Below, one piece after another: positions 9,992 through 48,696 of a stretch of DNA of 48,696 bases (its first letter is position 1; each line of letters begins with the position of its first letter). This DNA is from Psammoneis japonica. Its lineage: Eukaryota. A program made the translations under genes and the position numbers. The notes below the pieces were generated by a model. That model searched no databases. It was not told the DNA's origin and was given only the letters and a program-made list of their open reading frames with translations. The stretch lies in the NCBI GenBank assembly GCA_008632985.1, contig QPGO01000098.1, positions 186,001 to 234,696 on the forward strand. Reading direction: 5' to 3'.

Positions 9992-10125
9992 ACACAGCCC
10001 CACACCACCCCTTCCTGTCACCTCCAACAGCCCCGCCTCCCGAATTTCTCCGCCCCGCCATCAACACAGCCCCGCACCACCCCTTCCTGACACCTCCAAC
10101 AGCCCCGCCTCCCGAATTTCTCCAT
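9992..10125 (+). repeat. 72-bp tandem duplication
   Basis: acacagcccc(a/g)caccaccccttcctg..cacctccaacagccccgcctcccgaatttctcc occurs at ~9992 and ~10064. Confidence 0.8.
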
Positions 10126-12339: not shown

Positions 12340-13185
12340 GGATGTTTGCTTTGTTGTTGGACTCAAGCAGCACTCAGGCCCTGGCTGCATGTGTGAAAAC
12401 TGCTGTGGATGCCAGTCAAAGAGTCATCAATTGTTGGCAATGCACAGCACAGATCTGAGTGTGCTGTGGTGGCCACCAAGTGCTGCACACATTTGCTGTT
12501 GAGCCCAAGTGGCGCACCCTTTGAGAACACAAAACATGGGCAAAATCTCATCAGATGAGTTGGCTTGTGTTTGTTCAGTCTGCAATCCCATGGTGCATGC
12601 AACACAACATGTTTTGTGTGGTTTTGGCAACCACTCTGCAGGCACACCTGCACACTTGTCACCCACAAAACAAAGTGTGCATGCACCACTTTGAATCTCT
12701 GTGTGACAAATCTCCCATGACTGGCTTTCAGATGAAAATGTTTGTTGTGTTTTGCAAACCAACCATGCTGGCTTTGTTGCTGGACTCTCAAGCAGCACAC
12801 AGGCCATGGCTGCATGTGCTGACACTCCTGCTGTGAATGTCAGACAAAGAGCTGTTGATTGTCAACCATGCACTGCACAAATCTGAAGGCTGTGGCCACC
12901 AAGCACTGCTGCAACACAAGATCTTTTCCAGCACCAGGTGACATGCTCAACCACACATTTGATTTTGAGCCCAAAAGTGACACACTCTTTGACACAACAC
13001 AGAACATGGGCAAAAACTCATCAGATGAGTCAGTGTGCAATCACATGGTGCATGCAACATGACATGTTTTGTGTGGTGTTGGCAACAACTCTGCAGACAC
13101 ACCTGCACACTTGTCACTCACAAACAAAGTGTGCACGCATCACTTTGAATCCCTGTGTGACAAATCTTCCATGGCTGGCTTTAAG
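12340..13185 (+). repeat. Diverged ~430-470-bp tandem duplication
   Basis: Shared blocks such as aacatgggcaaaa.ctcatcagatgagt (~12533/~13003) and catgttttgtgtgg..ggcaac.actctgcag.cacacctgcacacttgtcac (~12608/~13063). Confidence 0.8.
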
Positions 13186-14899: not shown

Positions 14900-15620
14900 C
14901 AATGAGAGCACAAATGTGTCAAAATGATCTGCAAAGACCAACCAAGCATCCTGTCAGCACAAAATCACAAGCAGTGTTTTAAAAAAAAAACAAGACATGC
15001 CAAAAGGTTGTGCCTGCTTCTTGTGAAGTGCCTCCACAGCAGCTCTGAACAAACCAGCTGCTTGTGTTCAGATTGCTCACAAGTGAAACAAAAATGGCAG
15101 GACAAGTCACATGCCAGCCAGTCAGAACCTGCTTGCCTCCAATGTCAATGCCCTGGCTGTGTCACTGCTTGTGTCATGCTGTTCTTGTTGACTCCATTGC
15201 AGAAAAGATGTGTCAGGAATGGACACGCTTGAGCAGTGGTGGTGGCAGAGAGCATTGAGACCAACACCCCCCTGAGACAATGATTGAAAACAGTGCTTGC
15301 GATGCAAAGCTGTTGGGATGGCACAGCACAAACATTTTGACAGCCACTCATCTTGCATCCCAGAGCACTCTGTCTTTCACACAACCAAGACTCTGTCTGA
15401 GAAACTGTGCGACACTCACATTGTCTGCAACCATCCAACAAACTGCCATTCCTCCATGTGCATCTCTTGCAAATGCTTTGCTGAAGCCAAGAAAAAGGCC
15501 AAGACTCAACTCTTCCTTGCTTGATCCACTGAAAGCACTGAAAGTCTGGCTCACATGCAGAGCAAGTGGACAAGCCCCCTGGGCTGGGCAGCAGGTTGAC
15601 ACTGGATTTTCACACAAATC
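14900..15620 (-). pseudogene. Possible relic of a non-LTR retrotransposon reverse transcriptase
   Basis: FLGFSKAF (~15490, cf. LDFSKAFD) is followed ~70 codons later by SQGGV(L) (~15270, cf. QGxxLS). No intact YADD. Confidence 0.3.
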
Positions 15621-18269
15621 TCAACAATGAGCATGGTGGAAGAATGTGATCCACAGGGAAAGGAGCTGTTTCAGCTGTTGCTGTGCCAATGCAGGTGTGA
15701 AACCATGTGTTTTGCAGAAATGGCTGTCGATTTTGGGGCCAATGCCATTGCACCACTGGGTCGCTCTCAAGAAGTTTCTTGATGTGCGCCAGTCTAAATG
15801 GAGACCAGACTCTGTGACAAAAGACACCTCTCTCTGTTTCAAAAACAAAGGATCCCATTGCAGAATTTTGACTTTGCACTGGTTGGCAAAAGATTGCCAA
15901 GATCATTGAGGAGATGAAGCTGCCAAATGCAATGGCAAAACTCTGGGCCACCCAACATTCAGTGGGTTTGAGGATGATCCAATGGTGAGAAGGGCCCTCA
16001 GCTCTCCCTTGCAGCTCTCCTTTTGGGACATGACATGTGTTCACACAAGGAGTTGGCAGATGCAGTCAAAAAAGCAGGGGGTTTGCTTGCAAGGAACTTG
16101 CAGAAGACTGGGAAAGAGCTGCACGCTGCACAAAGCTCTTCAAGAAGACTTTTTGGGTGTGGAAGGAGCAGCCTTCAATTCCAGCAATGTGGCGCCATGC
16201 CTGACAAAGGGCTTTTGCACAAAAAATGATTGATGATGGGTGCCAAAAGTGCTCAAGTGAGTCTTCCATTTCTCACTTTACCACATCAAAGATGAGAGTC
16301 ATTGCAGGAACCAGAAATTAATTGTGGCATGTGAAGGGTCCTCAGGACATGCTCAGGACATGACAGTTGCAATTTTCAGGGGGCAGAGCATGCACAGATG
16401 CATGCTGTGTGCAACAGCAAGCTGTTTCTGAATTGTTGTGTTGACAACAAGGAGGAGCTGTCCAATGGAGCAGAGCACAGGCTGCACACCTGAACTGCTT
16501 CAGAGGCACCACATTTGGTGCTGGTGAAAGCAGTGGAGGAAAAGGAGCCAGCAACCTTGATGAACAGGAAATGCACAACAACAACATTGCAATGAAAGAC
16601 AACCCAGCCTGTGCTGGGGGAGGGGTGAGGGGGGCATCACACCTTGAAGCATTGTTGCTCCACAAGGATGCCAAGGCTGGTTTGTTTCTTGATTTTAAGG
16701 ATGAAGTCAAAGGGTCAGCACATCCTCTGTTGCCAACACCCACACTTTCATGCTTCGAAGCCTCAGCTTGTTTGATTAAAAACTGTCAATGTGGGCAAGC
16801 TGGTGGAGCTCATTGCAGATGAAGACACACTGCTTGCTTTTTCCACAACTGTCATTGATGCTCTGACATCTCTGGCTAAACTCAAAATGCAAAAGTCAGG
16901 GGAGAAGCTTTGGCTGCACAAGCACACTCTTCCACAAAGTGCAATGGTCATGGCTGAAAAAGCCAGAGTTCTCACATGGATGATTGACTGTGTGTGCAAG
17001 AAAGGCACTCAACATGCAACCGACGCTGGCACTCCCAACATTTTGCTTGTTGGTGGAGCCATGACTCTTGCTGCTCACAAGGGCATGAAGAATGTAGTCT
17101 GATTTTAAGCAACAAAATTCTTGCTTTGATGAAATCAATGAAGCAGCGCTGGGGAGCCACAAAATTCACAAGGCTGCTGAGCTGGTTGCAACATCATGTC
17201 ACTGTCAGACTGGGTGTGTGGGTGAGAGTCTGCTTTGAATTTGGGAGATGACTGTTTTGCGTCTGTGTGTGCTGATTTGGTCATCATCCAGCCCAGAGAA
17301 GCCAGCTTCCATTTCAAATTGGTGGAACAATGTCATCTTTTGTCATTGCAAGCCTTCACAGCAGTTGCCTCAAAAAGAGAGAAGACACCAGCAGTCAAAC
17401 AAATGGTGTTGGAGACCAGCTGGTGCAGATGGAAGTTGTCCAGAGATGTGACAGAGGATTGTCAGTGGTGTCATGCAGAAACAATGCCAGATCTTGTGCA
17501 GGAAAACCAATGGGATCAGCAAACAGTTGGTGATCAAATGACACCAAAAAGGATGACTTGTGTTCTTGCTGGAAAGGGACACAGCAACAGAGGCAGCACT
17601 TGCACCCCAAAGAGTGAAGGACTTGATTGAACAGCAGAGAAAAGAAGCAGCATTCTTAAAGACCAACTGGCAAGGACAGAAGCAGTCCAGAGATGGGACA
17701 TGCAGATTGTCAGCAGTTTCTGCTGAACCACACAGAATTTGCACTGGAACCTGTGCAGAAAATTTTGAGATGACAGAAGATCACAAGAAATGACAACCAG
17801 CATGCAAACCATGCCGGCAAGGCTTCGACACCCATCATTTTCCAGCCACCAAAAAATGTTTTGCATCATGCTGAAACAAGGTTGCACCATTTGCAACTGT
17901 GGACGAAAGGGGCTTGTTGGAACTGACAAGACACCATCTGAGAAGGGCAACATTAGCACGAGAAGTTGCATGGAAATCCACTCACAATGTGCTGTGGGTG
18001 TGCAGAGCTGACATTGAAAAATGGGTGCTCCAGCGTCCAAAACATTTGTGAGCAATGTTGCTCAATTGATGAAGGCTTCAGGGCAGGTTCTGAGAACTTG
18101 ACAAAAAAATGAAAGCACCCCTGAATCTTGCCCCAAGTCCCCCTTTTGGCACTGTCATTCCTGGCATGCCCAAAGGGATGGCGCCGCCATGTCACACTCA
18201 ACAACAGCCTTGTCTTGGTGATCAAAACAACATCTGTGTCATTTGGCAAAGACTGTTTGAAGGGTCTGC

Positions 18270-18480
18270 ACTCAGAAAAGTGGACAGCAACAGTTGACAC
18301 TGTGGATGGATGCTCTAGTCAGAACAAGCTTGTGCACGCGCAATCTCCATGAGCAAATGACCCCACAGTGGGTTGCAGCTCCCCAAGTGCCAGTGGGTGC
18401 AACACATGGCAGATGCACCTAAAAATGCCATGTCGCAGCATCTGTCAAGGCAAGGACAGAAATGGACAGCAGCACCTTGC
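18270..18480 (+). pseudogene. Possible relic of a DDE DNA transposase (DGCxxQ(N/Y)K ... HGKxxxD type)
   Basis: VDGCSSQNK at ~18302-18328, then a frame-broken QGK..EMDS some 40 codons later. The spacing is compatible with this motif pair. Confidence 0.3.
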
Positions 18481-20451
18481 TTTTGTGCCAGAGCTGTCAT
18501 CAAAAGAGGAGCTTGGTTGCTGCTGATGGGTTTAGTTGGGCATCAGCAGAAGTGCTGCCAGCTCTTGTTTGTGTCAAGGGTGGGTGCTTGCTGTCATGAC
18601 CAATCTTTTGAGTTCTTCAGCCAAACACCTGCATTCTCTTGCAACTGTGCAACCCATTCCCAAAAAGAAACAGAGAAAGTGCAAACAAAGCCACTTCAAT
18701 GTTGCTCAAAGGGGATAAAAAAATGCTCCAGAATTTTTCACAAAACTCCAAACCAGCCATGTCTGAAGGAACTTTCATCCAGCTCAAGCAACCAACAACA
18801 AAAATTGCACCAAATCCAACTGTTCAAGCATCATGATTGCATGGGCCCAGGAAGCACACACAGTGCCAAAAGAGCCCAGGCACTGTGATGAAGAACACCC
18901 AGTGGAAACAAAAAAAGGAAATCCAAAGTCAACAAAGTGGTGGGGTAAAAAGCACATGCCTGTCAAAGGATTTGAAGCACCAAAACCAAATGTGTCTCAG
19001 AAAAGCTTTTGCTCACTTCCAGAAACTGATTCTGAAAGACCATCATGAAATGCTCTGCCACGATGCAGTCAATGCAAGTGTTTCAAAATCTGTCAAACAG
19101 CAGCCTGCGCAGCTTTTGTCATTGAACAGCATCTCTTGTTCATGCACAAATTCTCATTTGGCCATGCAATGGCATGCCAAAAGGGCTGAAAGAGGGAGCA
19201 CATGGTGCAGATTGTAAGATGTTGCAAAAGGTGTCAAAATGCTGGTTGAAGAAGGGGATGGGGTGCTGTTGTGAGCCACTGACTGGTGCCCGGTGCTGCG
19301 CGCGTCATGTGATGAGAGGATGCAAAGTTCCAGAAGAAGTGGCCGCTGACCAGCAATGTGCAACACATCTGGCACACACATGGGAGACCTGAACACTGGG
19401 GATGTGAATCAATCACTGCACAGTGTGTGTTGTGACCTTTGCTGGACCAAAGCTGGAGTTGCAGCACAGCTCTGCTCTGCAGCTGGATGTTTTTGGCCTT
19501 CATCTCATCACTGGCCATTTTGGCATTGACCAGCAGACTCAATTTACAAAGATGCTTGAGCCACAAAATTGTTTTGCTGAGAGTGACACACCTTTGCTGG
19601 AGGAGAGGGCACATCTGTGAAGCACATTTTGAGCACATTTGACAGAGGACATGCTGCTGCCGCTGTTTTGGAAGCAAAAAGCATGAGCAGGAGAGCAGCT
19701 GTGTCGCCAACCTGACAGAGGAGTTGACAAGCTTTCAGGGGTCAAAGTGCATCATTCAGCATGTTGTGTTGCTGCAACAAGATCAGGCAATGAGTGGGCT
19801 GTGAAGAAACAGCGCGCAAGCTGCCCTGGTCGGTTTCTCCGTCACGGCACACGAGAAACCAGCAGCGGAGCGTTGACTCAGCTGCCAACATCTGGGAGGC
19901 ACGGACTTTCCGAGTGAACTTCATGTGTGATGCATTTCAGCAAAGGCTTGCAGTGTGTCATGTCAAAATGGCACACAGATCTGTGCCACAGTTGAGTGGC
20001 TTATGTGCCATTGACAAACAATGTTTGAGTGGTTGCCTGCGCAGTGGCTGCAATGGGATGGTTAGCAAGCGATGTAAAAATCTCTGCAGAAATGAGAATT
20101 TGCATCGCCGGCCGGGTGCAAAAATTTTTCTGAAGACAGTTTGTTATTGTAAGCTAAAATAATCGCATTTCATCGGTCTTTTGCAAAAAATTCGGCCTCA
20201 GCTTCAACCAGAAATTTCAGCAGCGCATCGATGCAAAAAAAAATTTGGAGTCGCATCGATCCTATCTCCCTGCGCCGCAGTCGTTGACTGCTGATAACAA
20301 AGCTCCAGAACCTCATCATATGGCTCATACATCAAACTCCACTTCCACTTCTGTTGCTTCTGAAGTTATGCCCAATTCATTGAATACCTGGGAGAATTTG
20401 GCGCAAGATCCAGCCGACGACTGGATGCATCGACGCTGATTCAGACATGCT

Positions 20452-33740: not shown

Positions 33741-35570
33741 ATGCATCTGAATACTGTGAGCAGGACCTTGTTTGATGGCAACAAGAACCGTAGCTTGCTT
33801 GGTGAGAAGCAGAAGCGTTCCCCTCATACATCTACTCCGCGTCCAAACAAGCGTGTTTGCTTCCAGCTTGATCCACGGGTGTGCTCGAGTAAAAGTACCA
33901 CGCCGATGGACATTTCTGCTGTTGCGACCGCCTTTTCTCGAATCGTGAAACAGTCCGACGTGCCCAGCTTGCTTGGTGAGAAGCAGAAATTTTCCACTCA
34001 TACATCTACTCCACGTCCAAACAAGCTTGTCCACTTCCAGCGTGATCCACGGGTGAGCTCAACTTTGAGTAAAAGTACCACGCCAATGGACATTCCTGCT
34101 GCGACCGCCTTTTCTCGAATCACGAAACTGTCCGACGAACCCAGCTTGCTTGGTGAGAAGCAGAAACGTCCTACTCATACATCTACTCCACGTCCAAACA
34201 AGCTTGTCAACTTCCAGCTTGATCCATGGGTGAGCTCAACTTCGAGTAAAAGTACCACGCCGATGGAGATTTCTTCTGTTGCGACCGCCTTTTCTCGAAT
34301 CGTGAAACAGTCCGACGTGACCAGCTTGTTTGGTGAGAAGCAGAAATGTTCCACTCATACATCTACTCCACGTCCAAACAAGCTTGTTAACTTTCAGCTT
34401 GATCCACGGGTGAGCTCAACTTCGAGTAAAAGTACCACGCCAATGGACATTCCTGCTGCGACCGCCTTTTCTCGAATCACGAAACTGTCCGACGTGCCCA
34501 GCTTGCTTGGTGAGAAGCAGAAACGCCCTACTCATACATCTACTCCACGTCCAAACAAGCTTGTCAACTTCCAGCTTGATCCACGGGATAGCTCAACTTC
34601 GAGTAAAAGTACCACGCCGATGGAGATTTCTTCTGTTGCGACCGCAGCTCATCGGAGCGTTGAACCTATCGCCGTTCCTTCGTCTCGATCTGTGAATCAG
34701 TCCGATGAACCAGGGCCCATGGAGATGGAACCCACGACGCCTTCTAGTGACATGTCCGTCACTCCCACCAGCACTGCGAGCAGAGATCTCGCATGCTACA
34801 ATGCCGTTGAAAATCAACGCGAGGTTGCAATCTTTCACAACAACCTTGGCCATGTCTACTACAGCCAAGGCAAATGGGACAAGGCGCTTGAGGCCTTTAC
34901 CAGCGCTCTCGTCATTCAGCAAGCACTTGCGGGGGATCATAATGTCGAGAATACGTCCAGTTACATGCACATTGCATCCGTTCTCTGCAAGCAAAACAAG
35001 CACCACCAAGCCTTGAAGAAATGTCGCGAGGCTCTTGCAATCCGGCGAGTCCACTTTGGTGATGGCCACGCCAAGACGGCTTCGGCGCATCACCTCTTGG
35101 GTATGTTTCTGAGTCATGAGGGTCGCAACTACGAGGAGGCCTTGGTAAGGCTCGAAACGGCTCTGGACATTCGTCAAGCCGTCTTGTGTCGCAATCATCC
35201 CAAAACGGCCTCGACCCATCACGAGATTGCAGTGGTGCATCGTTGGCAAGGCGACCATGAGCAAGCCTTGGAGCACTTTCGAATGGCATGTGCCATTCGA
35301 CAAGCCACTTTAGGAGAAAATCATGTTAAAGTGGCAGTCTTGCACTACGAAATTGGCTTGGTCCTTCGAGAGCAGCGCAATCACAAGGCAGCTTTGGAGC
35401 AGTTTTGCAAGGCGCTGGCCATTCGTAAAGCAATGTGGGGCACGGACCATCTCAAGATTGCTACCCTTTACAATCTTATTGGCGAGGCCCACCGTGAGCT
35501 GGGAAACTGCAACCAGGCCATGGAGGCATATGGCATGGCGCTAGCGATTAGCCGAGGCAGCAGTGCCTAG
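33741..35570 (+). CDS. Protein with ~5 N-terminal 58-60-aa Ser/Thr/Pro repeats and C-terminal TPR repeats (kinesin-light-chain/TPR_12-like)
   Basis: ORF 33687..35570, first ATG at 33741. TPR motifs such as HNNLGHVYYSQGKWDKALEAF and HPKTASTHHEIAVVH recur at ~42-aa spacing. Confidence 0.85.
   Translation: MHLNTVSRTLFDGNKNRSLLGEKQKRSPHTSTPRPNKRVCFQLDPRVCSSKSTTPMDISAVATAFSRIVKQSDVPSLLGEKQKFSTHTSTPRPNKLVHFQRDPRVSSTLSKSTTPMDIPAATAFSRITKLSDEPSLLGEKQKRPTHTSTPRPNKLVNFQLDPWVSSTSSKSTTPMEISSVATAFSRIVKQSDVTSLFGEKQKCSTHTSTPRPNKLVNFQLDPRVSSTSSKSTTPMDIPAATAFSRITKLSDVPSLLGEKQKRPTHTSTPRPNKLVNFQLDPRDSSTSSKSTTPMEISSVATAAHRSVEPIAVPSSRSVNQSDEPGPMEMEPTTPSSDMSVTPTSTASRDLACYNAVENQREVAIFHNNLGHVYYSQGKWDKALEAFTSALVIQQALAGDHNVENTSSYMHIASVLCKQNKHHQALKKCREALAIRRVHFGDGHAKTASAHHLLGMFLSHEGRNYEEALVRLETALDIRQAVLCRNHPKTASTHHEIAVVHRWQGDHEQALEHFRMACAIRQATLGENHVKVAVLHYEIGLVLREQRNHKAALEQFCKALAIRKAMWGTDHLKIATLYNLIGEAHRELGNCNQAMEAYGMALAISRGSSA
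33790..34650 (+). repeat. Coding tandem repeat, 174-180-bp units, alternating A/B types
   Basis: agcttg(c/t)ttggtgagaagcag restarts at ~33792, 33966, 34143, 34323 and 34500. Confidence 0.9.
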
Positions 35571-37124
35571 CCATGCAACAGCGCAAGTCGTCGTACCGGA
35601 TAACTGGTTATTCTTATCTAATCCACATTTCTTATATGCAAGTTTGGGCTAGTAGTGTCACTTTTTCTCTTGAGTGATGTGCGACCAATCTTGGACCTTT
35701 CTGGATCGACCGATCGTGAAGACGGGTGCGATTGATTCTTCGACAAATGCTACAAACGCGTTCATCGTGTTGTTCAATCAAGCAGCAGTGAGAGAAGATG
35801 CCGCTTATGCGCGTAACATTGTATTGCCGCGACCCGTGTCGCGTGAAAAGTAAAAATGGACAAGTAACTACCAATTTATTAAGACACGCCTCATCTTTGA
35901 ACTACGTCTTCTCTATAGTAGCATCATGTTTGTTGATGATACACTCTACGCAAAACGCACTGGTACGAAGTCCCAATTCCGCGACATGCGCCAAGTCGAC
36001 TAACCATTGCTTCCCAAGCAACGGACAGTTTGGGCAGGTCCAAGTCCTGGGTGAGGAGTCCCCCCTTGTCGATGCGCCCCAAAGACAACATCCATCATTT
36101 CAGGGTGCGGACTAAAGAATCGGTCCTTTTGGGTGAGACTTCCTCCTTGCTGCCAAGCACCAGCATCTCCCAGGTCGTTCCTGGAACAAGTGTGTTGCAT
36201 TTCTTCAAGCAAAACAGAGAAATGACTGCAAGTGTGAACCAAGGCTGTGCTGAGAAAACGATGAAAACAATCCCTGCACTGGGTCAAACAATGCTCTTCT
36301 GTGTCCAATGAAGCTGTCTTGCCCCCCTCGACTCAAGAGTGCTGCAACCACTGATCCAGCATTGATTCTCACAAATGAGGACCGCCTCCTCATGTTTCTG
36401 CATGCTGCACCAGACACAGCCACGTGGGGCATCCAGGGGAGGGAAGCCAACCAAAATCTCCTGCAACAACATTCCCACCAAGCATGCCACGCAACAACAA
36501 GCCCATCTGGTTGCCATCTTCAAACTCTTCAGGAAGCAAACTGCACTCCATGCACACATGTGAACCAAACAACCAGATTTGACACCAGAGCTGTGCTGTG
36601 ATGACCCCTCTGCATGGCAACAATGCACTCATGTGTGCAGAACAGGATCACCCTTGCTGACACCTGTGACCCAAGCCCAGCTTGAGCAACTCATGTGTCA
36701 GCAACAGCCAGTCTTCTGCAGCCCAAAAAAACTTGATCAAGCACCTGTGAATGCACGCTCTCAGGGTCAGGGTTGTTGGGGTCGGGGTTGGGATTTCGGG
36801 CATTGTTTGGTGAGAGTGTGTGTGTGTAAGAAGTTGTGTGGGTCACTCGCAAATGAGAAAGAGAGCTGTGCAGTGGCACAAGGTTCACAGTGGCGCACTT
36901 GTTTGGAAAGAGAGATTGTGTGATGACACATGATGGAGGTCAGGAATGCTGAGCTTGTCTTTGGAGTCAAAGAATGGCGCAACAATGAAAAGACAAACAA
37001 GCTCCATTGTGTCAACAAACTGCAAATTCATGAGGTTGTGGTCAGCTTTGAAGATTGTGCATCTGCGAAACTGTCCGAAACAACTGCTCGAATGTGAAAG
37101 TGTGCATGTTGTTTGTCCTCTGTT

Positions 37125-37262
37125 TTGAGCACATTTGCCACAAATGTGCTGAGCCAACTGGGTGCCCCTGGGCACAATGGTGACATGCTTGGCATGGATT
37201 GTGCAAAGGTTGGCATTTTCAAATGAGCCAACAAGACATGCTGCTCCAGAAGCTCCTTGTGC
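37125..37262 (-). pseudogene. Histone H3 C-terminal relic
   Basis: [38 protein letters not shown] aligns with H3 [37 protein letters not shown]. Confidence 0.85.
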
Positions 37263-37617
37263 AGGGGCTCTGACCGCTTTTCCCACAATGTGTGGCAGGC
37301 ATGGTGCAACACAATGGGTGCATCATTCTTTCCCATGAGCAATCAGCCAAAACACTTGATGCTGATCCGCTGTGCACCGACACTTTGCGCACACTTTTTT
37401 CTTGTCATTTTCTTGTGCTGGCACTTTGTGCAAACTTCTTTTTTCTCAGTTTCGTCTTGAACAAATGCAAAAGTTTTGACACCGCCATGTCCCCTGTCAA
37501 ACAACCTTGGTGCAAGAAGTCAGTCCTCTGTTTGACTCCAAACAACAATGCATCTTTTTGTTGATTTCACCATCTTGTTAAAGAGCTTGCCAAAGGAGTC
37601 TTTCAAAAGAGGGTGTT

Positions 37618-37680
37618 GAACCTGCACTGTCAAACATTCCAAGGTGCCGCCAACGCAACCTGCGGCAGTCTTGTCTTGGC
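37618..37680 (-). pseudogene. Possible histone H2A/H2A.Z-like relic
   Basis: TAAGCVGGTLECLTVQV versus H2A.Z TAAVYSAAILEYLTAEV. The match is short. Confidence 0.35.
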
Positions 37681-38250
37681 CCAGCAGCTAACCAGCCATG
37701 TGTGAAGACGAAAAAAATTTGAATGCTTGTAATGTGGGTCGTGGGCTTCATTTTTACTTAGAGGCGATGGTCTCTCTTTTCCGTTGCCAACGCGCCAGCC
37801 CAGATCAAATTTTCTAAAGACGAAAACAATGAGTTGTGCGCGAGAGGTGAGGCTGAGACAACGAAATCACGAAGCCATTTCGCGTTCGTCACAACAACTT
37901 TGCTCTGGTGCATCGGCCATCTGTCTGTCGAGGAGGCAAATTTGCATTAAAACAACAAGACAATGAAAGAAGAGACAGGGCAAGGAATCATGTCAATGAA
38001 GGACGTGCGCATTGCTGAGGCAAAGTAGTGCGGCATTAACACAGAACTCTCGCTGGCTTTGGGTTTCATTCGCAAGGTCTGTCAATTCCCTGAAACACGA
38101 TGCGGATGGCGAGACGCACCCAGAGAACTCCTTTCCAGTGACGCTTTTAGCGGCGCAGTCCTGCCGCATGTCCAAATGGATGAGAAAATGGATCGCCTCA
38201 GTCCAGCGGCATGGTGTGGAGCATGGAGGCATTCATCATCTGTGTGTGGT

Positions 38251-41200
38251 CTACACAGTGCGTTTTATGTATTGTCGTGAGATAGGATCGACGCGGAAGG
38301 GCGTCCTGAGTTTCGAACACTCTCCCCATGGAGTCGCTTCGATTTCAAACTTGAAGGTCACGGCAGGGCCTTCACCGGCATCCGAAAAGACTTCCCCATG
38401 CCACATTTGCTTCTCGTGATCACTGTTTGCATCTGATTTGGCCTCAAGGCCTACAACGATCTTTACATTCCTCTCTTTTGCAAGGATAAATCGCTCTGTA
38501 CGAAGGTGACCCCATAAAACTCGGAAGGCGCCATCTGCGGTGCCACCAGCAGCGCGTTTAACGCCGTGGGAGATGGCCTCTATGATGCATCGAACCAAAT
38601 GTGAGACTGGAAAAGCAGGCACGTCGTCAAAATGACCTGCGCACATCTCCTCTGGAACAGACTCCAGCATCAGAACTGTTTTGGAAGCATTGAAGCTCTT
38701 TCTTCCACCGAGAGGCTCGTTGCATTCACAGTCAGACCCGACGAGCATTGCTGGAGGCAACGTCACGAGAGCAGGCTGCTCAGAGTTCGGAACAGCAACT
38801 CCGCATCTCGTCATTCCCATGACAGAATGAAAATGGCCGGCCGGAATCACATTGTGCTCGGTGCGCAGCGAAGCAATCAGCTCTCCCGTTGCTGTGTTGA
38901 ATGCTTCCGAGACTGCCACCCCGCGATTTTTCGGCAAGTCAAGAGACTCTTTCCGGCCAACTGGGCGGCATGAGGTCACCGGAACGCCCTCCAACACCGG
39001 AGAAAGAAGTGTTGACTCCAAAACGGGGTAGCAAGATTGCTTGTCCTGGAGATTTTTGTCCAGACTCAATGCATGCGAGCCGACAATCGCCATGTGGCGA
39101 GCAAGCTCAGCAAGAGGAGCACAGCTTGTCGTACTCTCTGCTCCATCGATCGTTTCGGGATACGCAGTAGCCTCGACGGAGTCCTCGTCTATTTGAACTG
39201 CATCTTTAAGATTGTTGTAAGGCTCACGAACAAGGACGCGATCTTGGAATGGAAGGATGTTGTTGTCGCCGTGGCCGACGGCTTCCTTGGGCGGGCTCTG
39301 CAATGTTTTGAAGTCTTCCGAAGAACCATTCTCAAGCATTTCCTCTAGAAGTTGTGAAGCCAGAGAACGAATGCTTGGAGCAGAAATTGGGGTCATTGCA
39401 CTGAGTCTTTGTCCCGTGAGATCCTCAATTTTCGTCGAAAGTTGCACGGCTACCATAGAATCAACGCCAAGGTCGCGAAGCGATTTTTGATCATCCATTT
39501 TGGAAGAATCCATTCGAAGAACGAAGGCAGCGGCCTCTGTGATCATCGAGCTCACCCGTCGGACAGCATTCTTAGGGTCAGCCAACAATTCCTCTCGAAA
39601 CTTCTCGGTTTTACTCTTTGCTGACGCCTTGGCGCTAGAATGCCGTGCCTCAGCCTCCTGAATCAGGCCCCGCATGTGAGGGAATTCAGCACCCTTCCAG
39701 CTGGAATCCCATTTCAAAAAGTCTGCCTTTGCAACTAGACACAAGGGCTTGTGTTCATCACGCTCCTTGACAGAAGAAACTCAAGTGCTTGTCGGACCAT
39801 TTTCATCGACGTCGGTGGGATTCCCAAAGAGGAAAGATGCTGCTTCACTGCTTCATTCCGTGCCACGTGCCCAATGTCAAGTGATCCCAGTGCCATGGCC
39901 AAAGCCGGAAGTCCTTCATTGCTGCGCCTGGAAGCAAGGCCTTCCAAGAATGCATTGGCAGCAGCGCACATGGTTTGACGACCATTGCCAAACATGCTCG
40001 AAACAGAAGAAACTAAGACAAAGTGATCAAGTGTGGGAATGTTGCGAGAAGCTGCGTCAAGGCACATTGCGCCTGTGGTCTTTGCTTCCAGGCTCTCTTC
40101 GATGTCATGAGCTGTCAACATTGTGACACCCAAATCATTGTGCGAGACTGCGGCATGGAAAACACCAGCCACAGGTGGGATCGTCTCAGTTCCGTCAATT
40201 TCTTGGAAAAGGCGCTCTACAGCACGCATGTCCGACACATTTACAGCATGAACCGATGCAATCCCTTCGTTGGTTGGCATGTGAAGTCGCTTTTGATCAG
40301 CCTCGTTCTTGCATGTCCCAGACCGGCTCACTAGCACAAGATGTCCGGCTCCTAGAGAAGCAAGAACCTGTGCCAGCTGAAGTCCGAAACCACTGAGTCC
40401 GCCCGTAATGACATGGGATCGATCCTGACGAATGTTGGCTGGAGAGGCAGTGACATCCATGGGAAAGTGCCCGCTTCTCCAATCAATGACAGCTTTGCCA
40501 ACACATTTGCTGGAAGAAAGACACTGGAAAGCTTCCTGTGCCTCTTGAGGTTGGAAGACGCGCGTCGGAAGTGGCGCGAGTTTTCCTTCCTCCAAGAGTT
40601 GCATCACGGCAGAAAAGTGTTTTTGTACGACGGAGTGGTCATCGTTCTTCGACTGTTCTTCGATTAATACATCCAGGTCAATGGCGTGGTGTGACATAGA
40701 TCGGCAGAATGGAGTCATCGAGATGCGATTACCTGAAGCCATGTCGCCTTTTCCGATGTCAAGGTAGCGCCCGCCTGCAGCCATTGCTCGAAGCCCGACA
40801 TCGAGACTCTCTCCTGCTTGCGCAGACAACAAAGCCTGGACACCCCTTCCGTTTGTCACACGAAGCACTTCCTCGCCCCAATTCAATGAGCGCGAGTCAA
40901 AAACATGTTCTACGCCCAGTTGTTCGCGGAGGTAATCTCTTTTTTCTTGGGTGCCAGCGGTGGCGATAATCTCAGCACCAAGCAACCTTGCTACCTGTAT
41001 GGCAGACAGACCAACACCCCCAGCTGCAGAATGAATCAGAACTGTCTCCCCCGATTGTACGTTGCCGGCAACCACAAGAGCATAATATGCTGTCAAATAC
41101 ACGAGCCCGCAGCTAGCAACAGGAGAAGAAACATTGTTCGGTACCTTGATACACATCCCCTCTTCCTCCACTATTAGAGACCCCAGCTGCGATCTAGTGG

Positions 41201-44200
41201 CTGGAACAGCAACCCTGTCGCCAACGCGGATGGATTGCACATTCGGCCCAACCGCAGACACGATTCCAGCGCAGTCCAACCCAAATGATTCTTGTGAGTA
41301 GCTCCCAGAGAGAGCTCTGGGGTTGATACTACCCAGAACCTTGAGACAGTCTTTGAAATTAATGGATGAACAGTCGACTTCAACTGCCACTTGTTGACCC
41401 ATTAGTTGCGAAGCACTCCTTTGGATCGGCTCAAATTCGATTGACGACAAGTCTCCGGGCCTAGAGACAACAAGCCTTGCTCCAGAATTTCTGACTTGCT
41501 CTTCCACCATGAACGAACTGCCACTGCCACATGAGATGCCGTCCGGGAGGTTCGCGTGTCCGGCTTCGTCAAGCCAGTGATGACTCAAACGAGGTACGTA
41601 GGCTTCCGTCATTCCGGACCGCAGCGCAACATATTGCTGACCTTCGGCCCGCGCAGCATCGACGACATCTGATATTCTGTCAACATTAATCGCTCGATCC
41701 AAGTCTACGATGCTAGCCGAAAGCTTTGGGTGTTCCACATTCGCACTTCGAACGAAACCCCACAAGGCAGCCTGTACAGGATCGACCGATTCACCTTCGT
41801 TAACTGCCACGGCTTCAAGCGACACAACTAATAGTTTTTGGCCTATAGACAAGGCACCCTGAGTAGCAAGAACAAGATTGCCAATCATTTCAGAAGCGGT
41901 CATGCCAGCCTCGTAGTCCATACAAGCGAAGAAAATTGCAAGTTCAGCGTCGGTCCGAAGTTCACCCATTTCCAGCCCCGACGCTGTTGTAATGAGCAGT
42001 TCTTCTGGCTTCACGCTAGATGAAATCTCGACCCTGTGACCTCCTACCGAACGCTCCCATTCTAACGAGTACAGATGATCAGATAGAGGGGCTTCTTCTG
42101 TACTCGATTTTGGGATGGGAGCACAGCAGAGATCGTTCACAGTCAACTGCAGCTCTCCTTTACCTCCAAAGATCTTAATATCGCCCACAGCCTCGAGAGA
42201 ACTCAGCTTTTTAAGCTCGACGATCGCTGTCACGCCAGTTTCCACCTTGTTGTATGCAATGACGGAGCCGACTTGAACAGGCAACCAACCGGTGGGCCCT
42301 CCGTTGCGAGTCTTCTGGATCATCTTGACAAGAACTTGAAAGGCTGAATCTAGCAAACCCGCATCGACTATGCTGTTGCCAACGGAATTCGGCTGAATAA
42401 TCGAGATTTGGGCCTTGTCGCTCGCCAACGTAATCGATGAGACGCATCGAAAGCGTGGACCATAGGATAGGCCGACGTCAGCAAGATCGTTGTAAAAGTG
42501 CTCAATGTCGACTTTGATCGGGACCGGGGAAGAAGGCAGCGAAGGAAAGGTTTCCGTATTGCCCAGCGAAGCAAAGGAAGAAATGCTAGAATCCACAATT
42601 CTTCCGCTGCAGTGGTAAGACCAAGGCTGTGAATCCCCTCCCGAGCGGCTGGTGATATCAAACCTGCATCGGTCATTTGTGTTGACTTGTATCTGCAACT
42701 GTGTCGCATTCCGCATTCCATTTGATTGCTTCTTGGCCAAGGGGAGTGGAGCCTGGAACTTCATATCTTGAATCGCAATGGGCTTGGCGATGCTCGATTT
42801 GCTCACTGATGTAGCAGTAGGATCACCCTGGAGACAAGCGACTTCAAGGGCGGATTCTATGTACGCAGCCGCTGGAAGAATCGCTTGGTTGTCGATGACA
42901 TGATCTTCCAGCCATTTATGGCGAGAGGAGTCAAGGCGGGTGTTCCACTGAGGAACCCCCGCTCCGACAGAAAACTTATCGAGGAGTGCCCCCGGTGGGA
43001 TATCAGGTGCTAATGATCGATCCCAGAAGGTCTCCTTCTGCCAAGAGTATGTCGGAAGACTTGTCAGGCGCAAGAAAGGGACATCTGTATCTGTAGTCCT
43101 TGGCCACGCAATTTTCGTTCCGGTGACGAAAGCTTGCGCTAGAGCAGCATCGAGAACGTTTGCTTCTTGCGTTTTTCGCTTCATAAGAAACGCGGTCGTC
43201 ATATCTGTAATTCCCTCTTCGGCGCCAACTGTATGGATGGACGCTGCGAGTACAGGATGAGGGCCTATCTCTATGAAGTTCCTGCGGCCATCGTGAAGAG
43301 CAGCGCGCATGGCGCCAGAAAAGTCAACAGGGTCACGCATGTTGCGCCACCAATAATCTGGAGAGTGAATACTTCCCTGGATTTTGCCGCCTACCGATGT
43401 CGAGTAGAGAGGCACTTCTGGAGGACACACAGATTTCAGACCGTGTTCGCCTCCTAGCATCGACATCATGTCACGTTCGATATTTTCTGCTTCCATGTGA
43501 TGACTGTGATAGGCGACTTCGACTTTCATCTTTGCGTAGAAGGTACCTTCTGGGATTGCATCGCGCAAGTCCGCCAAGGCATCATTGTCTCCCGCCACTG
43601 TCACCATATCAGCTGAATTATAAGCCGCAATATCGATTCGGCCACAACAGAAGCCTCATGTATGTATTCTGTCATCTTCTGAGCCGATACACCAATTGCG
43701 ACCATACCACCACGCCCAGCCACTCTCTGCTGGACAGTTGCTCTGGCATGAACGACTCTGGCGGCGTCCTTGATGGAAAGGCAGCCAGCAGCAACAGCAG
43801 CTGTCACCTCGCCAACGGAGTGACCAATGATCGCGGAAGGACGAACAAGACGATCCTGCAACAACCGAAGCAGCCCAATCTGTAATATGAAGTTTGCCGG
43901 TTGGGCCACGTCGTTTCTGGCCATCTCGGACTCGTCGGGAGAAGGCTTGAACATTTTCGGAACAATTGGATCACCCCCTGCTGAAACGTATGCCGCATTG
44001 GCTTCGTCGACGCCACAACGGAAAATCGGATCGCTAGCGTAGAGCTGGGATCCCATAGCCCACCACTGCGGACCCATTCCAGTGAAAACGAAAACACACT
44101 CGTCATCTGAACCACGATGCGTTTGTCCGACGAATACGTCTCGAATTCCCGGCTGTCACAGCTTGTTTCCGCCAATACCGACAGTCCATGAACAAAGTCG

Positions 44201-45774
44201 TCAAGACAAGCCGCTCTAAGGACGGCCCTGCATTCGAAGTGAGATCGATGAACAGCAAGAGTGTAGTAGAGTCGATGCAGGAACAGCGACTCTTCTTCTT
44301 CAGTATGGACGCGCTCTTGCTGAATATAAGCCAGGAGGTCTTTGGCATAACTCTGGAGCGCCTCTTGCGATCTTGCAGAAACCGGGATGAGGTATGAATA
44401 GACATTAGTGGTGCTGAAGCTAGGGGCTGTAGCGGGAATAGGGTGTTCAATCGCAGGAGCAGCAGACAGCAAGGCGTGGCAGTTTGTACCACCATAACCA
44501 AAACTGTTCACAGCAACGACTGCATTCTCGGAATCAATAGGCCGAGTCTCATTGGGGACCTCGATGCCGTAGCTTGGACCAATTTCAAGCTCCGTCCTCA
44601 GACTTCCTTTGAGAATAGAGTGCTTCGGAATCAGCCCCTTTTGCACGGCCATCGCAGCCCTAATTATTCCGGCAACACCGGCAGCTCCCTCACAGTGACC
44701 AATGTTGCTCTTCACACTTGCCACCGCAATGGGGCTGCCTGCGACGTGATGCTTTCCATAGCTTTCAGCTATAGCACCAATCTCACACTTGTCGCCTGCT
44801 TTAGTGCCAGTGCCGTGAGCCTCAATGAACACAACGTCATCGGGAGCAATGGAAGCACGACGGAGGGTTTTAGTCATCAGGCGGTGCTGAGCATCACGGG
44901 AGGGCGACGCAATTCCTACGGTGCGTCCATCCTGGTTGATACCAGTGCCGCGAATGACAGCAACAATGTTGTCGCCATTCATGATGGCATCCTCGAGGCG
45001 ACGGAGAACGACGACGCCACACCCTTCTGCACGGGCATATCCATCGGCGAGATCGGTGAAGGTCTTACAGTGTCCATCAGGAGCAAGGAACCCTCCCTTG
45101 CTCATCCACACCATCATCTCCTTGCTGTGGATAGCATTGACGCCACCAGCGAGAGCCATGTCACACTCCTCATCGAGAAGAGCCTTCACAGCTAAATGAA
45201 TTGCCACGAGCGAGGACGAACAGGCCGTGTCGACTGTAAGACACGGGCCTTGGAGGTCGAAAGCGTGAGCTAGACGAGCCGAAACCATCGTCTGCGTCAT
45301 GGAGAATGCCGTGGTGGTACCAGCGCTTTCGATGTCCTTGCCCTGGACTAACATGTTGTCCATGGTGAAGCTTCCCACGAAGACAGCCGTATCGGATCCT
45401 TGAAGAACTTCTCGAGTAATACCGGCATTTTCAACAGCCTCCCATGTCACAGTCAAGAGAAGGCGCTGCTGAGGATCAAGTTTCTCGGCTTCGACAGGAG
45501 AGACATCGAAGAAAGATGTGTCAAAGTCACACATGTCTTTCTTGGCAAGGAATCCTGCACGATCCACGTGGGATATGCCAGGCACGTTCTTGTCAGCATC
45601 ACTTTCAAGCTCGCGGCACCAGCGTTCGCGAGGGATGGGAACGATACCATCGCCATCGGCTTGAGTAAAGTTCCAGAGGTCTTCAGCGTTCTTAACGCCT
45701 CCAGGGAAACGGCAGCCAGTGCCAACAATGGCGATGGCATCCTTGGGGAAGAGGTTTGCCGCGTTGAGCTTCAT
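38251..45774 (-). CDS. Intronless single-module highly reducing type I polyketide synthase, KS-AT-DH-psiKR-ER-KR-ACP-(hotdog-like C-terminal domain). Frameshifts at ~44120, ~43630 and ~39740; possibly a pseudogene
   Basis: KS DTACSSS/EAHGTGT/GHCEGAAG/NSFGYGGTN. AT VFVFTGMGPQW, GHSVG, AYHSH. DH WLEDHVIDNQAILP, LLDSAFQ. ER LIHSAAGGVG. KR ITGGLSGFG. ACP LGVDSM. ORFs 43804..45996, 43601..44077, 39735..43607 and 38251..39744 are consecutive. Probable ATG at 45774. Confidence 0.92.
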
Positions 45775-46230
45775 GGCTTGGAAAGGACAAGAGCTTGTTT
45801 GGAATATGTACTTTGTCAATCTTTTGACAAGAATTTTGTGAGTTCGGTCAGACAGATGCGCTTGTGCTGGACGTCCGAACGAGTCGTCATCGCGAAGTCT
45901 GGAAAACTGCTTGCAGTTTTTATAACATGACTGACGGTGTGCGGCAATGCGGCATGTTTTACGTAGCTCCTCACGAGATAGATACCGGTAGGTCAACTCT
46001 TAGTAAGCAACAAGTCAAAGACATGCCGGTAATAATGTACACGGTGGGTTCATAGCTCCTCGCGCGTAATCAATCATACTCGGTACTGCGTAGATCCTAC
46101 AGCACGCAGGCCCTTCATACAATGCGCGTCACTTCCGCGGTGGCCAGTCGCGCCGTGACTCGATTGCGTGGAACTCTCTGATCTGACCACGGCACTTCCA
46201 GTGGGAGGAGGAGTGGTTTACACCACCCGT

Positions 46231-46679
46231 CTGCAGCATGCATGCAGACAAAAGGTCATTTTTGTCACGCCCTTTGTGACATTTAAAGGCTGTGACACGT
46301 CGCCGTGATGCATTGACTCTTGTCAGCAGCTGCACGTTGCACTCCTCCCCATGCATCGTGCGTCCACGCGGCTCTTAAATGACGTGCACTGACACTGCAC
46401 GGTTTTGGCGGAACAGTGTGGGTACGTGCGAAGGAACATGCAGAACTGCACAGAGTTTTGCGCGTTCGACAGTGATCAACGTTGCTGCAGACAACTCCCA
46501 CTCAGGGTTTCGAACCCCTGGCCTCCTGCCTGATGGTCACGATGAACCACTCCGCTGTGAATTCACAATGCAGCATGCATGCAGACAAAAGGTTGTTTTT
46601 GTCACACCCTTTGTGACATTTAAAGGCTGCAACATGTCGCCGTGACACGTTGACTCTCATCAGCAGCTGCGTGTTGCAC
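46231..46679 (+). repeat. ~110-bp direct repeat (46231..46341 and 46569..46679)
   Basis: gcagcatgcatgcagacaaaagg..ttgtcac.ccctttgtgacatttaaaggctg...cagcagctgc...ttgcac occurs twice. Confidence 0.9.
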
Positions 46680-46767
46680 GTCTCGTCAGTTCTCCCACAG
46701 CTCTCTAGTTGCAACAACTGGAGCAGCCGGGATTTCCAACGTGGTGGACTGGGATGGCTTTGCCAGT

Positions 46768-46862
46768 GGATGCACAAGCCTCATCCCAAAAACCCAAGCT
46801 GGAGCGGGATGGCTTCACTGGCGGATGCACGAGCCTCATCCCAAAAAACCAAGCTGGAGCGG
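46768..46862 (+). repeat. ~55-bp tandem duplication
   Basis: ggatgcac(a/g)agcctcatcccaaaaa.ccaagctggagcgg occurs twice. Confidence 0.8.
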
Positions 46863-47319
46863 CAGGGCCAGAGGGCGAGAGAGGTGGGAGCGTTAAAAAC
46901 TGTCTGAGACGGCCTGTTGCTCTTGGTTTGCTCTTTGGAAGAATGTGAGAAGAGCAAGTGTTTTTCCAAGAGAAAACGGCAGTTGCTCTTTTTGCCTGCA
47001 CGTGCACGCTCAAATTTAAAAACTGCGGCCACAAATGACCCAACGGCCAAAGTGGGGTCATTGCCTCATTGAGCTGCACGAGGTTGGCAGCTCAGCTGTC
47101 AATTTCTTCTGGAGGGCAAGTGGGCTGTGTTCTCCAACCCGCCAACACCCAAAACACCTGTGCTAGAGTCAACTTGCATGGGCATGCACACGGCACTCTG
47201 TGTTTCAGATTTTGCCTCACTTTCTTGAGCTTCTGCACCAAATGAGCCACTTGTTCCCACACAGAAAGCTCGCAACAGCACACAGCTGGCTCTGTCCATC
47301 AGACAAAAGAACAAGCCTG

Positions 47320-47740
47320 GTGGGTTGGTGACAACCTTGTGGCAAGAATGTCCACGACTCAATGTTTTGCAAATTTCCTTTTTTGGACCCAACAAAGCCA
47401 CAGCTGTGCCCATCAAACAGGGCAACAAGACAGCTCACCCTGTTGCAGATGCACTCTGAGCTGGGCTTGCTGGCTTTGTCCAGCTTGCCATTGTTTGATG
47501 GAAAGCTCAACTTCCACATTGAGATGGGCACTCGTTCTTAAAGTTGTCCAACTGCAGAGACCAACAGAAGTGCGCTGCCCCTCCTCCCAGCAGAGCAGCT
47601 CCAGCAGCAAAAGCAACAGCCCCACATTTTGCAAGCTCTTTTTTTTCTGTGCAAATCTGCCATCTCAAAATTCTCAGAGATGCGGGTGTCACAAAACCTG
47701 ATGGTTTTGAAGCACATGTCTTGTTGCTGCAGCCAGAGAT
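47320..47740 (-). pseudogene. Degenerate third copy of the secreted-protein family (paralogs A/B)
   Basis: Colinear similarity to ~8500-8900 and ~25150-25570, e.g. tgatggaaagctcaacttccacat vs tgatggaaagctcgacttccgcat, and ttgaagcacatgtcttg. The translation shows WLQQQDMCF..ENFEMADLH. Confidence 0.85.
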
Positions 47741-47952
47741 GAGTGTGCAACAAGATGAGATGGTGGGTTCCGGCTCTGTTCCACAAAAAAGCAAAGCACA
47801 CCAAAGCTTTTCAACCTTGGTCTGCATGAATCCAATTGGTCAACTTGCACTGCACACACCAGTGTTGGCCAGGATTGGGCTGGTGGTGGTGGGGATGGAT
47901 GAAAGTGCAAAATGTGCACATGTGCATGGAAACCCCCCTGTGCAGACAGAGC

Positions 47953-48040
47953 NNNNNNNNNNNNNNNNNNNNNNNNNNNNNNNNNNNNNNNNNNNNNNNN
48001 NNNNNNNNNNNNNNNNNNNNNNNNNNNNNNNNNNNNNNNN
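47953..48040. other. Assembly gap (N run)
   Basis: Run of N characters. Confidence 1.
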
Positions 48041-48696
48041 ACACAGCAAGGGAGGAGCAACTGAAGCCATCTGCTGTTGTCTCCATTGCTCCGTCAAGAA
48101 GTGAGAGCACTGGTGTTGTTGTTGCAAACAGTTGCTCTCAGCTCAATCAGAGAGGTCATGGATGAGTCACATTGGCAGAAGGAGGGTGTTGAGCCCTTTG
48201 CTTGCCACATTTTCACATGAAGCTCCATGGCTGCAGGGTCCAGTGCACCTGTGTCATGTGCAGTGAGAACAGCAGCTGTTGGTCACCGCTTTTCTCACAT
48301 GTCCTTCACAGGGCACTCCTGGGGCATCATCAACAGCTGGGACTGGCAGGCATTTGCCAGTGCAGCTGGCCTCCTCTCCTGTCCAAGCTGGATGACAGTG
48401 GCTGTCCAGTGCTGCCCATCAGTCATGGACAGGGCCACAAAATTTTGGATGGGTTGGAAAGTGTCATTTGGAGGGCTGTGGCCAGGCGGCATCCTGTGGG
48501 TTTGCAGGACATTGGCATTTGGGTGAAAGATGAAAGCACCGTCTTGGAGTGTGACATGAGCAAAATTGCACATGACAGGCGCAGCTTGAGACAAACGAGG
48601 TTGACATCAACCCTGGCACAGAGGAGTGCCATGCCATGACACCCGGTGCCTGAACGCAGTGGGCTGAGATGTCACTGGGGTCAAAGCCAAGGTGGT

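Follow-up and report, generated by a model that had tools for sequence, protein, structure and literature searches.

Does a diatom-like genome hold a working polyketide synthase (PKS) gene of a bacterial kind, and if so, how did the gene come to be there? The question is raised by a stretch of 48,696 nucleotides from Psammoneis japonica (GenBank assembly GCA_008632985.1, contig QPGO01000098.1, positions 186,001 to 234,696), which we call the window and number from its first base. On its minus strand the translation reveals the remnant of a type I PKS gene, with an ATG at 45774 and a stop codon at 38251-38253. The gene of the assembled haplotype is dead, carrying three one-base deletions and a Tyr-to-Cys change in the active site of the ketoreductase (KR). 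We consider it likely that the locus is a resident nuclear gene for a fully reducing, single-module type I PKS resembling a fatty acid synthase (FAS), that its lineage came from bacteria, and that, besides being dead in the assembled haplotype, its 3' part is eroded at TpA dinucleotides. The most instructive feature of the locus is this ongoing TpA erosion, which differs between two versions of the gene and includes the loss of the KR catalytic Tyr.

Three frameshifts in the assembled gene

The domains of the PKS are a ketosynthase (KS), an acyltransferase (AT), a dehydratase (DH), an enoylreductase (ER), the KR, and an acyl carrier protein (ACP), followed by a C-terminal domain described below. 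Their coding sequence is made up of four stop-to-stop frames, at 45999-43804, 44155-43601, 43655-39735, and 39780-38251. Three changes of frame, near 44151, 43647, and 39738, separate them, each corresponding to the loss of one base, as follows.

38251..45774, minus strand: type I PKS gene remnant, whole; four frames, about 2505 codons, no in-frame stops inside the pieces
44151..44152, minus strand: frameshift 1, a one-base loss in the KS-AT linker; the contig from sequencing run X1 has an extra base, that from run X2 agrees with the window
43647..43648, minus strand: frameshift 2, a one-base loss inside the AT; run X1 has both forms (extra base at 40.1 of 120.2 depth)
39738..39739, minus strand: frameshift 3, a one-base loss between KR and ACP; the X1 contig has an extra base

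Four full-length homologs are collinear through all four pieces, in frames 2, 1, 3, and 2, with only a few residues between the pieces, and the alignment with the protein P0246 runs straight through the third junction at 39738. We also weighed the possibility of tiny introns at these junctions but dismissed it, as the homologs align without missing residues. The collinearity leaves no room for introns, and so the frame changes are frameshifts; a first-pass annotation, which had seen no introns in the gene, was right on this point. It had also described a complete KS-AT-DH-ER-KR-ACP module. The domain order is borne out by Pfam, but the module is not complete, given the three frameshifts.

The window copy does not have the single uninterrupted reading frame of a type I PKS. 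Motifs that we take to be the catalytic ones of the KS, AT, DH, and ACP are present in the translation, but in the KR the codon for the catalytic Tyr (39966-39968, minus strand) is TGC, for Cys, in a position that is Tyr in 19 of 19 homologs and in P0246. On account of the three frame changes we class the gene as a pseudogene of a fully reducing single-module type I PKS. The assembled copy is unable to make a product. Nonetheless, of the 259 columns in which 18 or more of the 19 homologs agree, 231 are retained, the catalytic Tyr of the KR being one of the 28 that changed, and there are no in-frame stop codons inside the four coding pieces. This degree of preservation indicates that the damage is recent.

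A second version of the locus in the sample

The read evidence consisted of assembled contigs from three sequencing runs of one sample (X1, X2, and X3), compared with the window over 36000-47900. Contigs from X1 covered 30 of 30 bins and those from X2 covered 16 of 30, with none below about 40764, while X3 gave no cover; frameshift 3 can be seen in X1 only. Four indels are listed within the gene, behind 44151, 43953, 43647, and 39738, each with one base more in the contig, and three of the four coincide exactly with the frameshift sites of the window, as seen in X1 contigs.

It might be argued that the three frameshifts are assembly or consensus errors in what is really a single intact gene. 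At all three, the window is one base short of contigs of 50x depth. A one-base deficit is the typical direction of long-read consensus errors. However, a 4203-base contig from X2 (41808-46008) has the window form at 44151, 43953, and 43647, and X1 has both forms at 43647. As one run keeps the window form at two of the frameshift sites and another run shows both forms at one, these are real variants and not assembly slips. In addition, none of the three sites lies in a homopolymer run, and the window differs from the X1 contigs by approximately 0.3 to 0.8% substitutions, which consensus errors do not explain. We therefore regard an assembly artifact as very unlikely. At 45519-45597, X1 contains two versions at about equal depth (29.7 of 62.3). 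We interpret the contigs as carrying two genuine versions of the locus, for which two haplotypes are the simplest account.

A second alternative is that the other haplotype is intact and functional, so that the strain is heterozygous for a null allele and the product is still made. At all three frameshift sites the X1 contigs are longer by one base, and at the KR catalytic codon they read TAC (Tyr); with the extra bases, the residues across frameshift 3 match P0246, and each version has about half of the depth where both are seen. Against this stands the fourth indel:

43953..43954, minus strand: extra base in the X1 contig at a site where the window is in frame by homology; four-base run; would break the AT frame

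The X1 contig at 43734-45303, which aligns with two gaps, carries both extra bases, at 44151 and at 43953. The contig that repairs the first frameshift would thus itself be frameshifted in the AT, with the active-site region out of frame. There is likewise no synonymous excess among the differences between the versions: 25 of the 38 substitutions listed in the gene alter the amino acid, where random placement would give 27.8 (P = 0.36), and the two versions appear to differ as neutral DNA would. We judge an intact second haplotype unlikely. Since the second version lacks the lesions of the window but has an apparent frameshift of its own, both haplotypes most likely carry the gene as a recent pseudogene, which probably makes nothing in this strain.

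Several points weigh against this reading. The neutral-ratio test has little power with 38 sites. The comparison used contigs rather than raw reads, from one sample, so minor variants are dropped and haplotypes are possibly mixed, and the contigs may be the data from which the window was built. Another 148 differences and 5 indels lie outside the listed set, which makes both the phasing of the second version and its completeness provisional. At 43953, the additional base sits among four identical bases and is possibly a contig error, in which case the second haplotype could be intact and functional.

TpA hypermutation in the flanks and in the 3' part of the gene

The first-pass annotation had noticed decayed DNA on both sides of the gene, and the dinucleotide counts agree. 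Two flanking blocks and one part of the gene are depleted in TpA.

36201..37700, no strand: hypermutated block downstream of the gene; 3 TA against 99 expected, TA observed/expected 0.03; CG observed/expected 0.26
46100..48696, no strand: hypermutated block upstream of the gene; reaches the window end and has a run of N at 47953-48040 inside it
38254..41000, minus strand: TpA-eroded 3' part of the gene (partial); TA observed/expected 0.26; CpG 0.88, not depleted

Within the upstream block, the stretch 46401-47952 has a TA observed/expected ratio of 0.08 and a CG ratio of 0.38. In comparison, six neighboring host open reading frames (ORFs) have TA ratios of 0.47 to 0.67. A third hypermutated block, of 10 kb, lies at 10001-20000, with 27 TA against 666 expected (0.04), a CG ratio of 0.15, and a TG+CA ratio of 1.82. 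TG+CA is 1.7 to 1.8 times the expected value in all three blocks.

The gene itself is not uniform. Its 5' part, 41001-45774, has a TA ratio of 0.53, against 0.26 in 38254-41000 (Fisher P = 4e-8), and it is the latter part that adjoins the hypermutated block at 36 to 38 kb. The direction of change can be read from the two versions in the sample. In 13 of the 38 listed differences the contig has TA and the window has TG or CA, and in 2 it is the reverse (two-sided binomial P of about 0.007). Between 38998 and 40857, the change from TA in the contig to TG or CA in the window accounts for 8 of 10 listed differences, including the KR codon, TAC to TGC. The same direction emerges from the relatives. 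Relative to P0246, the window has changed Tyr to His six times and Tyr to Cys three times, all at or below 40691, with one reverse case. In the C-terminal domain, four sites that are Tyr in both P0246 and a related fragment, P0252, are His or Cys in the window; at one of these four, 39075, the X1 contig still reads TAT.

Both the depletion of TpA relative to the neighbors and the direction of change relative to a less mutated version are thus found in the 3' part of the gene. The halved TpA content and the Tyr-to-His and Tyr-to-Cys changes indicate that the TpA-to-TpG/CpA hypermutation of the flanking block has leaked into the gene. As a pattern, this shows the 3' 2.7 kb being eroded by the same process as the adjoining nongenic block. 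Two considerations temper this: the depletion is partial, and it may partly reflect a lineage-specific composition, because the loss of Tyr was judged against relatives that are only 45 to 52% identical.

Three observations concern the hypermutated blocks themselves. The downstream region at 36072-37941 has five small indels of both signs against the X1 contigs within 2 kb, which is denser than inside the gene. An ORF in the downstream block, at 36885-37322 on the minus strand, gives a sub-threshold match to PF00125, the core histone fold, at its C-terminal end (E = 1.3e-5; 25.8 bits, against a cut-off of 26.4), and may be a dead histone gene copy. The run at 47953-48040 in the upstream block is an assembly gap of 88 N.

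Domain organization of the PKS

The Pfam order on the minus strand is KS, AT, DH, ER, KR, and ACP, with every match above the curated cut-off. With the additional parts, the order is KS-AT-DH-psiKR-ER-KR-ACP plus a C-terminal double hot-dog domain of about 310 residues.

44620..45741, minus strand: ketosynthase (KS), Pfam PF00109 and PF02801 (E = 2e-76 and 2e-36), with the motifs DTACSSS, EAHGTGT, and NIGHCEG
43116..44095, minus strand: acyltransferase (AT), PF00698 in two pieces (profile 1-139 and 146-317; E = 3e-30 and 1e-17), with the motif GHSVGE; split by frameshift 2
42105..42959, minus strand: dehydratase (DH), PKS double hot-dog, Pfam PF21089 and PF14765 (E = 6e-14 and 7e-14)
41613..41840, minus strand: psiKR or structural Rossmann region, a weak match to PF22953 (E = 0.0047), containing QAALWGFVRSANVEHP
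40485..41396, minus strand: enoylreductase (ER), Pfam PF08240, PF00107, and PF13602 (E = 1e-18)
39879..40415, minus strand: ketoreductase (KR), Pfam PF08659 (E = 5.5e-40)
39319..39558, minus strand: acyl carrier protein (ACP), Pfam PF00550 and PF23297 (E = 6e-9), with the motif LGVDSM
38326..39261, minus strand: C-terminal double hot-dog domain, with the invariant motifs PY, AExxRH, and CxGHFxxxPAxPV and without a Pfam or NCBIfam model

KS-AT linker families are matched between the KS and the AT, and the Pfam scan of the gene found no methyltransferase family, in agreement with the first-pass annotation; the two strings it had quoted, VFVFTGMGPQWW and QAALWGFVRSANVEHP, are present in the translations. 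The best PDB sequence matches of the KS are KS domains of bacterial PKSs, CurL and mycocerosic acid synthase (MAS). In an intact enzyme of this layout, the ACP would carry an acyl chain through iterative rounds of elongation to a saturated or nearly saturated state, and the C-terminal hot-dog domain would then release the chain or process it further.

The C-terminal double hot-dog domain

The translation continues for about 400 residues beyond the ACP serine. The first-pass annotation had omitted the domain encoded there, as it had the partial hypermutation of the 3' part of the gene. A tail of about 300 residues is common to 12 sequences (the window PKS, P0247 of the P0246 cluster, and ten others), with 17 invariant columns. 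In BLASTP searches the tail of the window PKS matched 10 distinct family members at E values of 2e-18 to 1e-5, and P0246 at 4e-77. None of the 12 tail-bearing members was matched by a Pfam or NCBIfam model.

An AlphaFold2 model built on the alignment is a double hot-dog (pLDDT 76, pTM 0.78). Its best PDB matches in Foldseek are acyl-ACP thioesterases, at an E value of about 2e-11. A second structural aligner (VIA) gave Z scores of 17 to 18 to TesB-type and ACOT thioesterases, with a root mean square deviation of 3.1 to 3.5 Å over about 224 residues, and Z scores of about 15.5 to 15.9 to FatA and LnmK. Sequence identity to the structural matches is 4 to 11%.

Four of 20 stand-alone bacterial homologs of the tail have sub-threshold FabZ matches in their second half (E = 6e-7 to 3.5e-4, where the cut-offs are 113 to 155 bits). 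Together with the GHF...P..PV motif, these matches point to a FabZ-like ancestry for the second half of the tail. A protein atlas gave FabA/ApeI-like leads, with scores of 0.83 to 0.86, below the trust level of the atlas. From its position after the ACP of a fully reducing module, we lean toward a tail that releases the finished chain as a thioesterase; otherwise, it would be a second, FabA-like dehydratase or an isomerase.

The domain also occurs by itself. Stand-alone homologs of about 290 to 460 residues were found at 68 loci (within L006-L076) in Promicromonospora, Archangium/Myxococcus, Trueperaceae/Deinococcota, Bacteroidota, Microcoleus, and others. Of the 20 that were scanned, none reached the curated cut-off of any Pfam or NCBIfam model, and they look like a double hot-dog protein family that existing models do not cover. 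An unmodelled domain of about 300 residues is thus present, fused to PKSs and stand-alone, across many bacterial phyla.

Relatives and origin of the gene

The best full-length matches among 5.8 billion proteins are 28 to 36% identical to the window PKS. All 15 organism-named rows among the 120 matches listed are bacteria, and the relatives with organism names are mostly Myxococcota, at about 33% identity. When one genome per prokaryotic species was scanned with the tail alignment, 76 loci emerged, all of them bacterial, with 81 relatives among them. Eight of these loci have the tail joined to a PKS, and in 7 of the 8 the matches span at least 2251 of the 2508 residues of the window PKS. The fused loci belong to metagenome-assembled genomes of Bradymonadales, Myxococcales (identical to P0007), Kofleriaceae, Polyangiaceae, two "delta-proteobacteria," and one alphaproteobacterium; one further fused locus, from Myxococcota, is partial. 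The window PKS is about 33% identical to these bacterial members overall, and 45 to 49% in the KS. Six fused loci were inspected, and all have neighbors of bacterial type, such as TetR, AcrB/HlyD, response regulators, OmpA, and GGDEF proteins. No partner genes are conserved among the six neighborhoods, so nothing about the product can be read from them.

A tree of 53 KS rows places the window PKS within an 18-row family clade (ultrafast bootstrap 100, SH-aLRT 99), on a long branch of 0.92, against a median of 0.29. An approximately unbiased (AU) test does not reject a clade of the other 17 rows without the window (P = 0.38). In a tree of the region from the DH to the end, the window PKS pairs with P0246 (SH-aLRT 100) at the end of a stem of 1.19, and the pair stands beside, not inside, a 15-row bacterial clade (97). 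The homologous tail of about 300 residues and the KS clade place the gene in a bacterial PKS family that ends in a hot-dog domain. By sequence, then, it is a member of a family defined by a common C-terminal domain, whose identifiable members are bacterial, and the bacterial affinity first suggested for it holds.

Few sequences are close to it. P0246 is the closest relative, with 658 of 1422 aligned residues identical (46%). P0252, a fragment of 273 residues, is 56% identical over the matched stretch in the search and 52% over 266 residues in our own alignment. A search of 1.84 billion representatives with the ACP plus tail returned 981 matches, of which only P0252 was below an E value of 1e-30, and a search with the C-terminal domain among longer proteins found P0246 only. 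The corresponding KS search among longer proteins was dominated by multi-KS proteins and did not single out nearest neighbors. Scans of metagenome contigs with P0247 and with alignment A3 gave no relatives.

The gene resembles its host in composition. GC at third codon positions (GC3) is 0.511, against 0.509 in nine host ORFs, and relative synonymous codon usage correlates with that of host ORFs at r = 0.53, where host ORFs correlate among themselves at 0.38 to 0.60. Elsewhere in the window the ORFs are of eukaryotic types, coding for a DDT/WSD chromatin protein, a TPR protein, a GT2 glycosyltransferase, and a GFO/IDH/MocA oxidoreductase. We weighed a join to bacterial contaminant DNA and dismissed it, given that the codon usage is host-like, that hypermutation of the host type extends into the gene, and that two versions occur at equal depth.

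The sequence evidence supports a bacterial ancestry of the family together with a long residence in a eukaryotic lineage. With about 33% identity to the bacterial members, host-like GC3 and codon usage, a separate and long-stemmed lineage, and an AU P value of 0.38, a recent transfer is not supported. The horizontal acquisition that had been proposed for the gene is plausible as an ancient event. A point on the other side is that the trees contain no labelled eukaryotic PKS, so the bacterial ancestry rests on which relatives carry names.

In our preferred reading, of a resident nuclear gene, a eukaryotic ancestor probably acquired the lineage from bacteria in the distant past, as the identifiable members of the family are bacterial, and the gene would since have taken on the codon usage of its host. 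In the assembled haplotype it is dead, with its one-base deletions and the KR Tyr-to-Cys change, and its 3' 2.7 kb is being eroded by the hypermutation that has struck the adjoining nongenic block.

Flanking DNA and the mobile-element question

The gene had initially been suspected of being cargo of a large mobile element. In an extended form of this idea, the gene was acquired recently or carried by a large mobile or viral element, and the hypermutation was aimed at it as foreign DNA. The organism-named relatives are all bacterial, hypermutated DNA flanks the gene on both sides, and in Bigelowiella natans the same TpA pattern is reported on sequence not derived from eukaryotes (bioRxiv 10.64898/2026.01.13.699255). 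However, the best bacterial identity is only about 33%, and the codon usage and GC3 are those of the host. No transposon or virus family was found in 18 ORFs scanned from the two flanking blocks, where the sole match was the sub-threshold histone fold, and scans of viral contigs with alignments A3 and A2 gave no relatives. Within 35500-48696, neither direct nor inverted terminal repeats enclose the gene. The ordinary TpA content of the 5' two thirds of the gene further indicates that the gene as a whole is not a target of the hypermutation. We consider recent acquisition or carriage of this kind very unlikely, and the gene as mobile-element cargo is not supported.

The remaining block and repeats of the window are noted for completeness. 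Nine ORFs from the block at 10 to 20 kb match no transposon, virus, or other Pfam family, and a repeat scan found no tandem arrays. Directly upstream of the PKS start, at 45925-46718, the summed X1 contig depth is 33,000 to 68,000, against about 50 nearby, a depth that points to a short repeat present in very many copies; scanning it for Rfam families and tRNAs gave no match. Two repeat copies of 116 bases, at 46232-46347 and 46569-46684, are 87% identical, and a tandem pair of 55 bases lies at 46745-46854. A 5550-base X1 contig runs through 47490-47900, then through 2494 other bases, and then into a copy of 38047-38176 in which 22 of 130 letters differ. It follows that the 3' flank of the gene, immediately beyond the PKS stop, has a diverged duplicate past the right end of the window; no second PKS copy was seen there.

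Comparison with known systems

Type I PKSs are uncommon in diatoms, as the first-pass annotation had remarked. A table in Shelest et al. 2015 (PMC4661987) shows none for the five diatom genomes examined there, and Kohli et al. 2016 (PMC5029157), in a large transcriptome survey, report none expressed in bacillariophytes. Di Dato et al. 2019 (PMC6616357) describe a PpsC-type type I PKS transcript in the diatom Thalassiosira rotula that was confirmed by PCR on axenic DNA. Because of this transcript, a diatom type I PKS is rare but not unprecedented. We found no description in the literature of a genomic diatom type I PKS locus of this kind besides the T. rotula transcript paper. By its description, the T. 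rotula enzyme is similar in being a diatom type I PKS, and P0249 of the P0246 cluster bears the same PpsC-type name. The T. rotula transcript is expressed, whereas the window copy is frameshifted. The genomic copy documents the presence of the family in a diatom-like genome, and that its loss can occur.

The bacterial family (loci L001-L005, L008, L012, and L065, and proteins P0002, P0003, P0006-P0009, P0014, P0031, P0032, and P0049) has the same domain order and the same tail, at a length of 2312 to 2423 amino acids, about that of the window PKS. It differs in having intact genes in bacterial neighborhoods, at 28 to 36% identity, whereas the window copy is broken and lies in a eukaryotic genome. 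The window PKS, P0246, and P0252 form a long-stemmed branch of their own, apart from the bacterial members.

MAS and the MAS-like PKSs of mycobacteria have the same fully reducing single-module layout, and the KS matches 5bp1 (E = 3e-102) and 9d2y (9e-101). Yet the window KS is no closer to MAS than to CurL (1e-105) or to DEBS modules. To our knowledge, MAS has no C-terminal hot-dog domain. Among stramenopile algae, the iterative cis-AT type I PKSs of Nannochloropsis are comparable by their description in PMC4661987, being single-module enzymes with an integrated AT. With regard to the tail, double hot-dog thioesterases (TesB, ACOT7/12, and plant FatA) resemble its predicted fold. It differs from TesB, ACOT, FatA, FabZ, and FabA in that none of the 12 tail-bearing members reaches any Pfam or NCBIfam model, and identity to the structural matches is 4 to 11%.

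A bolder reading would have a TpA mutator caught in the act of destroying one haplotype of a gene of bacterial descent, creeping in about 2.7 kb from an adjoining repeat block, with the KR Tyr codon already converted and the other version still Tyr. On this reading the window PKS, P0246, and P0252 would also constitute a eukaryotic (diatom) lineage, as yet undescribed, of FAS-like PKSs with an unmodelled double hot-dog domain at the C terminus for release or processing. We offer this combined reading as possible but doubtful.

The closest parallel to the erosion itself is the TpA-restricted hypermutation of integrated foreign DNA in Bigelowiella natans (bioRxiv 10.64898/2026.01.13.699255), which has the same direction and context, TpA to TpG/CpA, with blockwise TpA depletion and CpA+TpG enrichment. 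The host lineage is another one, and CpG is depleted here in the full blocks but not in the eroded part of the gene. New relative to that account are the extension of the TpA process over about 2.7 kb of a gene and the fact that the versions of that gene present in this sample are still unlike at TpA sites. A hypermutated and a less mutated version side by side in one sample show the direction of TpA change and its spread into the gene without a loss of CpG.

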